From assembly GCF_003334335.1 (NCBI RefSeq), contig NZ_QOWQ01000002.1: a DNA stretch of 64,000 nt; one strand, written 5' to 3'. Within the stretch, counting starts at the first letter, position 1. Each line of letters starts with the position of its first letter. A program made the translations under genes and the position numbers. This document shows, piece after piece, positions 17,390 through 23,588 of this stretch. The stretch is from Escherichia coli (GTDB taxonomy: Bacteria > Pseudomonadota > Gammaproteobacteria > Enterobacterales > Enterobacteriaceae). Below the pieces are notes generated by a model that saw nothing but the letters and a program-made list of their open reading frames with translations, was not told where the DNA came from and searched no databases.

Positions 17390-18193
17390 ATGAACGCATT
17401 ATTAAGCAATCCCTTTAAAGAACGTTTACGCAAGGGCGAAGTGCAAATTGGTCTGTGGTTAAGCTCAACGACTGCCTATATGGCAGAAATTGCCGCCACT
17501 TCTGGTTATGACTGGTTGCTGATTGACGGGGAGCACGCGCCAAACACCATTCAGGATCTTTATCATCAGCTACAGGCGGTAGCGCCCTATGCCAGCCAAC
17601 CCGTGATCCGTCCGGTGGAAGGCAGTAAACCGCTGATTAAACAAGTCCTGGATATTGGCGCGCAAACTCTACTGATCCCGATGGTCGATACTGCCGAACA
17701 GGCACGTCAGGTGGTGTCTGCCACGCGCTATCCTCCCTACGGTGAGCGTGGTGTCGGGGCCAGTGTGGCACGGGCTGCGCGCTGGGGACGCATTGAGAAT
17801 TACATGGCGCAAGTTAACGATTCGCTTTGTCTGTTGGTGCAGGTGGAAAGTAAAACGGCACTGGATAACCTGGACGAAATCCTCGACGTCGAAGGGATTG
17901 ATGGCGTGTTTATTGGACCTGCGGATCTTTCTGCGTCGTTGGGCTACCCGGATAACGCCGGGCACCCGGAAGTGCAGCGAATTATTGAAACCAGTATTCG
18001 GCGGATCCGTGCTGCGGGTAAAGCGGCTGGTTTTCTGGCTGTGGCTCCTGATATGGCGCAGCAATGCCTGGCGTGGGGAGCGAACTTTGTCGCTGTTGGC
18101 GTTGACACGATGCTCTACAGCGATGCCCTGGATCAACGACTGGCGATGTTTAAATCAGGCAAAAATGGGCCACGCATAAAAGGTAGTTATTGA
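17390..18193 (+). CDS. rhmA: 2-keto-3-deoxy-L-rhamnonate aldolase
   Basis: HpcH/HpaI aldolase-family protein starting [21 protein letters not shown] (267 aa); the 368-aa six-frame ORF is an upstream extension overlapping rhmT. Confidence 0.9.
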
Positions 18194-18233
18194 TATCAAA
18201 GGCCCATGGGGATCGGCTGTGGGCCTGTGTTAA

Positions 18234-18419
18234 TTAGTGGTTATTCGCTGCCAGATCGGCTTCGCTTAGCTGGGTGGCCGCGAGCACCTGGTCACGATCA
18301 AAGCCCTGTTCCAGCATGCGCAAAGCAATTTTAATGGCTTGTTCATGCAAACCTTCTAATTTACCTTCCTGCCAGCCAATTTGATGTCCTTCCTGCCGCA
18401 GCCGTTCAGCAATAGTCAT
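18234..18419 (-). CDS. ypaA: Small protein YpaA, a diverged duplicate of the RpnE C-terminal domain
   Basis: 61-aa [64 protein letters not shown], near-identical to the last 56 aa of the upstream 299-aa ORF; same ribosome-binding site (AAAAGGAGAGATTAATG). Confidence 0.8.
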   Translation of the reverse strand: MTIAERLRQEGHQIGWQEGKLEGLHEQAIKIALRMLEQGFDRDQVLAATQLSEADLAANNH

Positions 18420-18431
18420 TAATCTCTCCTT

Positions 18432-18602
18432 TTAATGACAGTTCGGAATATCAGCATCAGTGAGTTGGGTTGTCGCCAGCACAATCTCACGTTCAAAGCC
18501 CTGCTCCAGCATGCGCAAAGCAATTTTAATGGCTTGTTCATGCATACCTTCCTGCCAGCCAATTTGATGCCCTTCCTGCCGTAGCCGTTCAGCAATAGTC
18601 AT
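18432..18602 (-). CDS. Predicted internal in-frame small ORF within rpnE (RpnS-like C-terminal domain, 56 aa)
   Basis: Internal ATG at 18600-18602 preceded by GGAGAG (AAAAGGAGAGATTAATG), the same sequence as the ypaA start region. Confidence 0.45.
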
Positions 18603-19331
18603 TAATCTCTCCTTTTGTAGTGGTGAACGTTCGGCAATCTCCTCAATAAAACGGGTGAAACGGGAGGTATCGCCGCATTGCAGCAGATAATTAAACAGTG
18701 TTTGTAGCTGGCTGTCATTAGTGAAGCCTCTAACCAAAAGCGTGGTGATCCTGTCGACCATGCCGATTAAATCGCGGTCGCGAATATGCTTTTGAATCAG
18801 TTCCAGCAGAGCTATACGCCGATGTTGCATGATCTCATCGTCAGGTACGATGGTGATATCCACCAACGGAAAAGCTTCGGTGTACAACTGCCGGGCAAGT
18901 TGCGGATCGTCAAACTCATCCAGCCAGTTGAGTGAGTACGGGTAAGGCGAGGTTTCGCCATGATAAAACAGCAACGGCACCACCAGCGGGACTCTGTCAT
19001 AGCCTTTGTCCAGGTGACGCTGCATGGCGGCAGTGGCATAGCGCATTAGCCGAAAAGCCATATTCTTTTCTGCAGAGCTTTGATGTTCAATCACGCAGTA
19101 GATATAGCCGTCACCGTCGCTGGTTTCCACGGACCACAAAACATCCGAGTAGTAAGCGCGTAAACTTTTTTCAATAAAACTAGTGGGTTCCAGGCGTAAG
19201 GTTTGCAGGTTGCAAAGCTTGCGCAGTGGTTCTGGTAAATGTATTTCGAGAAAATCCCGTGCGGTTTCGGGTGTGAACATAAAGGTTTTAAATACCGCAT
19301 CATGCGGGGAGGAGGTTGTTGATTCGGTCAT
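18432..19331 (-). CDS. rpnE: Rpn-family recombination-promoting PD-(D/E)XK nuclease (YhgA-like, transposase_31 family)
   Basis: 299-aa ORF recognised as YfaD/RpnE. Confidence 0.88.
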
Positions 19332-19479
19332 GGTTGTCCGTCACCTGATATTTATGATGACGCGACATTACGGTTATCCCAGGCCTTTGACATCTGCCAG
19401 TTTCAGCCTTTGCGAGACGTTTTCAGAGGAATTTTCACTGCGTTGCAACGCATACATTGGGCACGGAATCGTGTACGCA

Positions 19480-19511
19480 AAAATGCCCGGTAACCACATG
19501 CTTACCGGGCA
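19480..19511 (-). terminator. Rho-independent terminator downstream of glpC
   Basis: Minus-strand hairpin GCCCGGTAA-(loop)-TTACCGGGC followed by a T-run, directly after the glpC stop. Confidence 0.7.
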
Positions 19512-19523
19512 TCAGAAAGGAGT

Positions 19524-23588
<4,065 letters not shown>

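Follow-up and report, generated by a model that had tools for sequence, protein, structure and literature searches.

The window, meaning the whole 64-kb stretch of Escherichia coli DNA that was analysed, carries on its minus strand the rpnE gene (yfaD; 18432..19331), a 299-codon open reading frame (ORF) that encodes the 299-residue RpnE_L protein and corresponds to MG1655 rpnE (b2244). Nested at the 3' end of rpnE and in the same frame is rpnE_S (18432..18602, minus strand; 171 nt, 56 residues plus the stop at 18434..18432). Downstream lies ypaA (rpnE_Ss; 18234..18419, minus strand), an ORF of 61 residues that encodes a further, free-standing copy of the small protein. The MG1655 annotation places rpnE and ypaA (b4543) between glpC and yfaU, and a GC-rich hairpin located between the convergent ypaA and yfaU genes (18200..18226), followed by a weak T-run on the minus strand, is likely the transcript end. 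The window and MG1655 are 99.96% identical over 7 kb. Only three bases differ (window positions 19012, 18868, and 16425), and the segment from 18867 down to 16426, including the internal start site, the nested ORF, and ypaA, is identical in both.

In RpnE_L, a PD-(D/E)XK nuclease domain (residues 8-209) precedes a variable C-terminal domain. Pfam analysis reports PF04754, Transposase_31, for the first of these (E-value 7e-88, residues 8-209), and the NCBIfam profiles NF007418 (699.5 bits, cut-off 583) and TIGR01784 (173.5 bits, cut-off 52.1) both return hits well above threshold. All six RpnA functional residues listed by Kingston et al. (D11, D63, E82, Q84, R94, and D165; PDDEI motif) are kept in the RpnE of the window. 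Regarding the C-terminal part, Pfam returned no significant named domain and no DUF4351, while in the RpnE and RpnA profiles of NCBIfam the 56-residue protein aligns from profile position 244 on (positions 244-287 for the RpnA profile). PADLOC 2023, which holds no Rpn model, reported no match at the locus. Public annotation of these genes is inconsistent. RefSeq names rpnE an "ISNCY family transposase", marks ypaA as a pseudogene in MG1655 (L001, 3817-4002), and labels the downstream copy at five other loci (L006, L007, L013, L015, and L016) as "incomplete; missing N-terminus". The copy is nevertheless a complete ORF preceded by a Shine-Dalgarno (SD) sequence of its own, and its product has been detected.

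The internal start site of rpnE

The minus strand of the window reads CTACAAAAGGAGAGATTAATGACTATT and displays an SD sequence and an ATG inside rpnE, the internal rpnE sequence being read as CTACAAAAGGAGAGATTAATGACT. The initial annotation had reported a GGAGAG upstream of an in-frame ATG within this gene, and both elements are indeed present, GGAGAG at 18612..18607 and ATG at 18602..18600, the latter in the frame of the 299-codon ORF. They are separated by the spacer ATTA (18606..18603, minus strand). The distance of 5-6 nt given by the same annotation holds for the GGAG core, which lies 6 nt from the ATG, but not for GGAGAG, which lies 4 nt from it. The internal SD as a whole, AAGGAGAG (18607..18614, minus strand), is made up of codons K240 and E241, and the internal in-frame start codon (iTIS; 18600..18602, minus strand) encodes Met244 of RpnE_L, that is, Met1 of RpnE_S. 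The AAGGAGAG-ATTA-ATG arrangement at codon 244 falls at the edge of the variable C-terminal domain, and its aligned position is the same in each of the five paralogs. In particular, M244 of RpnE aligns with M244 of RpnA, and K240, E241, and M244 of RpnA are all present in RpnE. The start region had also been described as the same as that of ypaA. This is correct over 34 nt, from -15 to +19, where AAAAGGAGAGATTAATGACTATTGCTGAACGGCT is found at both starts, ypaA having arisen by tandem duplication of the 3' end of rpnE.

To place the strength of this site among comparable ones, the duplex energy with the 3' end of the 16S rRNA was scored for 459 in-frame internal ATGs belonging to the window ORFs of at least 150 residues. 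The internal SD of rpnE scores -8.7 kcal/mol and ranks fourth out of 459 (median -2.2, 5th percentile -5.7 kcal/mol), a match that exceeds chance expectation. Two of the three stronger sites lie no more than 75 nt from the first ATG of the ORF that contains them and are probably the true gene starts. The annotated primary start of rpnE has an SD of only -3.8 kcal/mol. Two further in-frame internal ATGs, located deep in long ORFs at ~49775 (minus strand, -10.7 kcal/mol) and ~47599 (plus strand, -8.6 kcal/mol), have SD energies comparable to that of the rpnE site. The RNA around the internal start of rpnE is no more stably folded than shuffled sequence (z +0.76); it gives no sign of a regulatory RNA structure, and the SD is not sequestered. 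An Rfam search of the locus RNA returned no family match.

The four paralogs of rpnE were taken from MG1655 and a five-gene codon alignment of rpnA-E was built, in which nGG GAG nnn nnn ATG ACn occurs at the same aligned codon in all five K-12 genes. The internal SDs of the five paralogs range from -7.4 to -10.8 kcal/mol, and the primary start of each gene is weaker (-3.8 to -8.0 kcal/mol). Identity among paralogs at third codon positions reaches 0.65-0.66 at the start site, as compared with 0.25-0.40 in neighbouring sequence, and enhanced synonymous-site conservation at yfaD was also reported by Meydan et al. (bioRxiv 10.1101/520783). The comparison extends to 14 E. coli rpnE alleles sampled across the whole identity range: the nGGAG-N6-ATG pattern (core GGAG-N6-ATG) is invariant in rpnA-E and in these alleles, and the context AAAAGGAGAGATT[A/G]ATG is found in 14 out of 14, while the length of the small protein meanwhile varies from 56 to 88 residues.

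Published evidence for RpnE_S, and a promoter predicted from the sequence

The independent production of the C-terminal 56 residues, put forward in the initial annotation as a gene-within-a-gene arrangement, is borne out by published profiling and SPA tagging in MG1655, the sequence of which is identical in the window. Indeed, both retapamulin and Onc112 yield an initiation peak inside rpnE in this strain (10.1101/520783; PMC10400941 Fig. 2E), and a chromosomal C-terminal SPA tag reveals the small RpnE_S (PMC10400941 Fig. 2H); these are the profiling and tagging assays that the annotation had suggested. Retapamulin profiling (Ribo-RET) by Meydan et al. detected peaks at in-frame internal starts in five out of five rpn genes, and the internal product of rpnE was noted to resemble YpaA (10.1101/520783). 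Zhong et al. (2023, PNAS, PMC10400941) presented Onc112 and retapamulin tracks for rpnE-ypaA and, using chromosomal SPA tags, detected RpnE_S, RpnE_L, and YpaA (= RpnE_Ss) in MG1655. The MG1655 RpnE_S/YpaA pair described in these studies (Meydan 2019; Zhong 2023) comes from the same locus, its start site, nested ORF, and ypaA being base-for-base identical to those of the window. Published experiments on an identical sequence accordingly establish that ribosomes initiate at the internal site and that RpnE_S and YpaA are made as proteins, and RpnE_S is almost certainly translated separately. The internal start and the separate 56-residue protein are already known at this exact locus and are not new. 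The preprint by Meydan et al. later appeared in Mol Cell (2019).

A candidate promoter is located ~90-115 nt upstream of the internal start. It consists of a putative -35 hexamer, ATGACA (18713..18718, minus strand), and a putative -10 hexamer, TTTAAT (18690..18695, minus strand), with a TG directly before the latter, and its transcription start site (TSS) is predicted at ~18684-18679, for an rpnE_S(-ypaA) transcript. ATGACA-N17-TTTAAT agrees with the consensus at 10 of 12 positions, a degree of agreement reached just twice in the 64-kb window when both strands are counted. Both hexamers were located via the paralog codon alignment, within conserved N-D-S and L-F-N-Y codons. They are conserved in rpnA, rpnB, rpnD, and rpnE and invariant in the 14 rpnE alleles; they are not conserved in rpnC, the internal SD of which, GGGAGGGGAG, is accompanied by two adjacent ATGs. 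A built-in sigma-70 consensus scan of 18150-19550 returned no promoter, and a first relaxed scan found none in rpnE, because both required an A at position 2 of the -10 hexamer, which TTTAAT does not have. An internal TSS of rpnB was mapped in strain EDL933, 650 nt into the gene, and checked by RT-qPCR (PMC10469882); the homologous TTTAAT of rpnB ends 7-8 nt before it. Zhong et al. also cite dRNA-seq TSSs inside all rpn genes (PMC10400941). ATGACA and TTTAAT as the exact promoter hexamers of rpnE are a prediction made from the sequence. As this promoter lies outside the duplicated unit, ypaA would share the same transcript.

Fold, repeats, and tandem duplication

The AlphaFold2 model of RpnE_S (pLDDT 80.3) is composed of a long helix (residues 3-33) and a second, shorter helix (residues 38-45). 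Foldseek reports RpnA_S (PDB 7TH0) as its best PDB match, with a probability of 1.00, TM-scores of 0.64 (query) and 0.77 (target), and an E-value of 0.037, which is weak given the tiny size of the protein; Trp-repressor-like proteins come next. BLASTP aligns RpnE_S and RpnA_S with 40% identity (E-value 1e-8). In a phmmer search of the PDB, designed pentatricopeptide and helical-repeat proteins came out above RpnA_S, but only a short helical stretch was matched repeatedly, and these hits were set aside as compositional.

The RpnA_L/RpnA_S pair of E. coli K-12 is among the closest known systems. It shares with rpnE the domain architecture and the catalytic residues, an internal start at M244 behind an AAGGAG encoded by K240-E241, and the first 11 residues of the small protein, which are identical. 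The two differ in that RpnA_S (49 residues) is devoid of the extra repeat units, of which RpnE_S has three, and that rpnA has no downstream duplicate. Moreover, the antitoxin, complex-formation, and nuclease-inhibition experiments are those of RpnA. The repeat tract of RpnE_S (18546..18581, minus strand) belongs to helix 1 and is formed by four-residue xxEG units starting at residue 8, three in the window allele and from 3 to 11 across the 14 E. coli alleles, which gives RpnE_S its range of 56-88 residues. Variable four-residue repeats have been described as a property of the Rpn family (Zhong et al., PMC10400941).

YpaA comprises four repeat units (18351-18398), the extra one being KLEG at 18351..18362, and is 75% identical to RpnE_S with gaps counted. 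Its SD, GGAGAG (18424..18429, minus strand; -8.7 kcal/mol), has the same sequence as the internal site; it follows the rpnE stop codon by 2 nt, and the start of ypaA itself follows that stop by 12 nt. The tandem duplication is composed of units of ~190 nt, unit 1 at 18452..18640 (minus strand) and unit 2 at ~18250..18451, with 161 of 183 aligned bases identical. Tandem Repeats Finder, run on 18150-18750, returned no repeat at all, missing both this duplication and the 12-nt repeats. The junction, where GAT meets ATTCCGAAC, creates the IPNCH-stop tail of RpnE. Comparison of 18432-18455 with 18615-18643 (minus strand) indicates that the end of rpnE, GAT ATT CCG AAC TGT CAT TAA, is a degraded, frame-shifted copy of GAG ATT GCC GAA CGT TCA CCA CTA CAA, which precedes the internal start. 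The IPNCH residues and the stop codon are therefore derived from a duplicate of the bases that lie upstream of the internal start, and they mark the duplication junction. In strains with a single copy (B, Nissle 1917, and O157:H7), RpnE ends in a ypaA-type tail, SEADLAANNH.

Eight loci with two copies were sampled, and in each of them RpnE_S and the YpaA-like copy have unequal numbers of repeats. These are the loci of the window and MG1655, which are identical there, and six others (L006, L007, L010, L013, L015, and L016). The corresponding RpnE_S/YpaA-like lengths are 56/61, 76/61, 76/57, 60/73, 88/81, 88/73, and 76/57 residues. Addition or removal of one four-residue repeat in helix 1 abolishes neutralisation, the case of a one-repeat mismatch being that of RpnC (PMC10400941). 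If we assume that the same holds for RpnE, YpaA and RpnE_L may not be a cognate antitoxin-toxin pair. A similar organization exists in some E. coli strains for rpnC and rpnC_Ss, with a nested small protein, a free-standing downstream copy, and pairing by repeat number (PMC10400941); according to the phylogeny of Zhong et al. (PMC10400941), the rpnC duplication is independent of that of rpnE.

RpnE as a putative toxin-antitoxin locus

In the Rpn family, RpnS is the antitoxin that binds the full-length RpnL, a PD-(D/E)XK nuclease toxin, and blocks its action (PMC10400941). Toxicity, SOS induction, and DNA cleavage by the cognate RpnL are all blocked by RpnS, and neutralisation has been demonstrated for RpnA, RpnB, RpnC, and RpnP2, with paralog specificity for RpnA and RpnB (PMC10400941). 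RpnS forms a complex with RpnL and is itself a dimeric three-helix bundle; the plasmid-borne RpnP2, the sole Rpn protein with antiphage evidence, protects against T-even phages (PMC10400941). Taken as a whole, we consider that rpnE is a gene-within-a-gene toxin-antitoxin locus of this family, with a probability of about 85%. Following this reading, the full frame would encode RpnE_L, a PD-(D/E)XK nuclease domain followed by a helical C-terminal domain, while the strong SD in the K240-E241 codons and ATG244 would direct translation of the C-terminal domain alone as RpnE_S, probably for the most part from a shorter and more abundant transcript issued from an internal promoter ~80 nt upstream of the start codon. 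RpnE_S would form a small helical bundle, with its long first helix and four-residue repeats serving as a dimerisation surface, and would pair with the identical domain of RpnE_L, thereby holding the nuclease inactive as an antitoxin, the repeat number deciding its binding partner. The ypaA gene would represent a tandem duplicate of this module, with the same ribosome-binding site and one extra repeat. The binding of RpnE_S to RpnE_L and a role against phages would follow by analogy with RpnA, RpnB, RpnC, and RpnP2, and on the same grounds an antitoxin action of RpnE_S on RpnE_L seems fairly probable.

The behaviour of RpnE in K-12 has to be weighed here. When overexpressed, the RpnE of K-12 was neither toxic nor active in recombination, and it did not induce SOS (PMC5350276); K-12 may consequently have no toxin to neutralise. 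The nuclease domain of the window has L107 and P155 (codons 19011-19013 and 18867-18869, minus strand), whereas that of MG1655 has Q107 and L155. L107 and P155 are found in the window and in 12 of 12 other sampled alleles, Q107 and L155 in K-12 alone; among the paralogs, the equivalent of position 107 is L in RpnA-C and I in RpnD, and that of position 155 is P in RpnA-D. Exact K-12 61-mers occur in 355-356 of the ~5,300-5,400 genomes matching each of two probes, and about 355 of 5,421 E. coli genomes have the K-12 base at both positions; among the matches listed, all are K-12 laboratory derivatives or strains of unstated background (MG1655, C600, J53, JM109, ER1709, and others). Judging from this conservation, the K-12-specific L107Q and P155L substitutions may explain the inactivity of K-12 RpnE. 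It may also be explained by RpnE_S being co-expressed from the earlier assay constructs, as Zhong et al. argued for RpnS in earlier assays (PMC10400941). In the same strain, the rpnD pseudogene (L005, 8999-9919) is interrupted in frame by a stop at codon 104, which belongs to the conserved A-M-Q-R-H motif. This stop sits three residues before the equivalent of the L107Q change of RpnE, so that two K-12 rpn paralogs are altered in one short segment.

The alternative that survives best accepts the small protein but assumes that it is no antitoxin of RpnE_L in this lineage, RpnE_L being catalytically dead or harmless and RpnE_S and YpaA being leftovers or having another role, for instance in modulating other Rpn paralogs or as a regulator akin to helix-turn-helix proteins. 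It would account for the inactivity of K-12 RpnE in three out of three assays (PMC5350276), for the relatedness of RpnS to helix-turn-helix motifs noted by Zhong et al. from HHpred (PMC10400941), for the Trp-repressor-like matches ranking second to 7TH0, and for the YpaA repeat number, which differs from that of RpnE_S by the kind of one-repeat mismatch that abolished RpnC neutralisation. However, RpnE keeps all its catalytic residues, the K-12 inactivity is explicable by RpnE_S co-expression or by the two K-12-only substitutions at family-conserved positions, and the paralog-specific antitoxin action of RpnA and RpnB speaks against cross-regulation. We regard this alternative as quite unlikely.

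A second alternative, that the small C-terminal product results from proteolytic processing of RpnE_L and that the SD and ATG are incidental, appears highly improbable. A western blot with a C-terminal tag cannot by itself separate processing from internal initiation, and the published start-codon and ribosome-binding-site mutants cover other genes, namely rpnA and a C. difficile gene, as well as rpnB and rpnP2 on plasmid constructs (PMC10400941). Nevertheless, two different inhibitors place arrested ribosomes at the internal start of rpnE, the small protein was lost in the rpnA mutant, where K240R+E241D+M244L abolished RpnA_S, and in the C. difficile one (PMC10400941), and the same sequence drives the free-standing ypaA. 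Processing would also leave the SD strength and the conservation of synonymous positions unexplained. Lastly, the notion that the SD-like sequence is conserved solely for the residues K-E-x-L-M-T-I-A and not for ribosome binding can practically be dismissed, for although the motif is located where two domains meet and MTIA is conserved as protein, in the five paralogs the first residue over the SD varies (K, G, or R, E being next) while the bases GGAG are fixed, Lys is always AAG and Glu always GAG there, synonymous-site conservation is enhanced at yfaD (10.1101/520783), and the profiling peaks show directly that ribosomes bind there.

Returning to the toxin-antitoxin reading, a bolder version of it can be drawn. 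The "inactive" label of RpnE would be an artefact of the K-12 allele, the window allele would be a working toxin checked by RpnE_S, and YpaA would be not a spare antitoxin but a non-cognate cassette swapped in by recombination, changing the toxin-antitoxin register. This version is speculative, and we hold it as doubtful.

Other genes produce two proteins from one frame via a 3'-proximal internal start, as with Cas11d in cas10d and the C-terminal isoform of ArcB. The short products of these genes cooperate with the long protein or act apart from it, whereas RpnE_S would antagonise RpnE_L. The nested gene adds no discovery in itself, but it shows that a nested gene that truly exists can be found by reading the sequence alone. 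Possibly new, if modest, leads are the two substitutions specific to K-12, the hexamers of the putative promoter, the junction of the duplication, and the repeat mismatch between RpnE_S and YpaA. As for the biology of the Rpn family, it is already established that the antitoxin is written within its own toxin gene and that a repeat "ruler" sets its partner.
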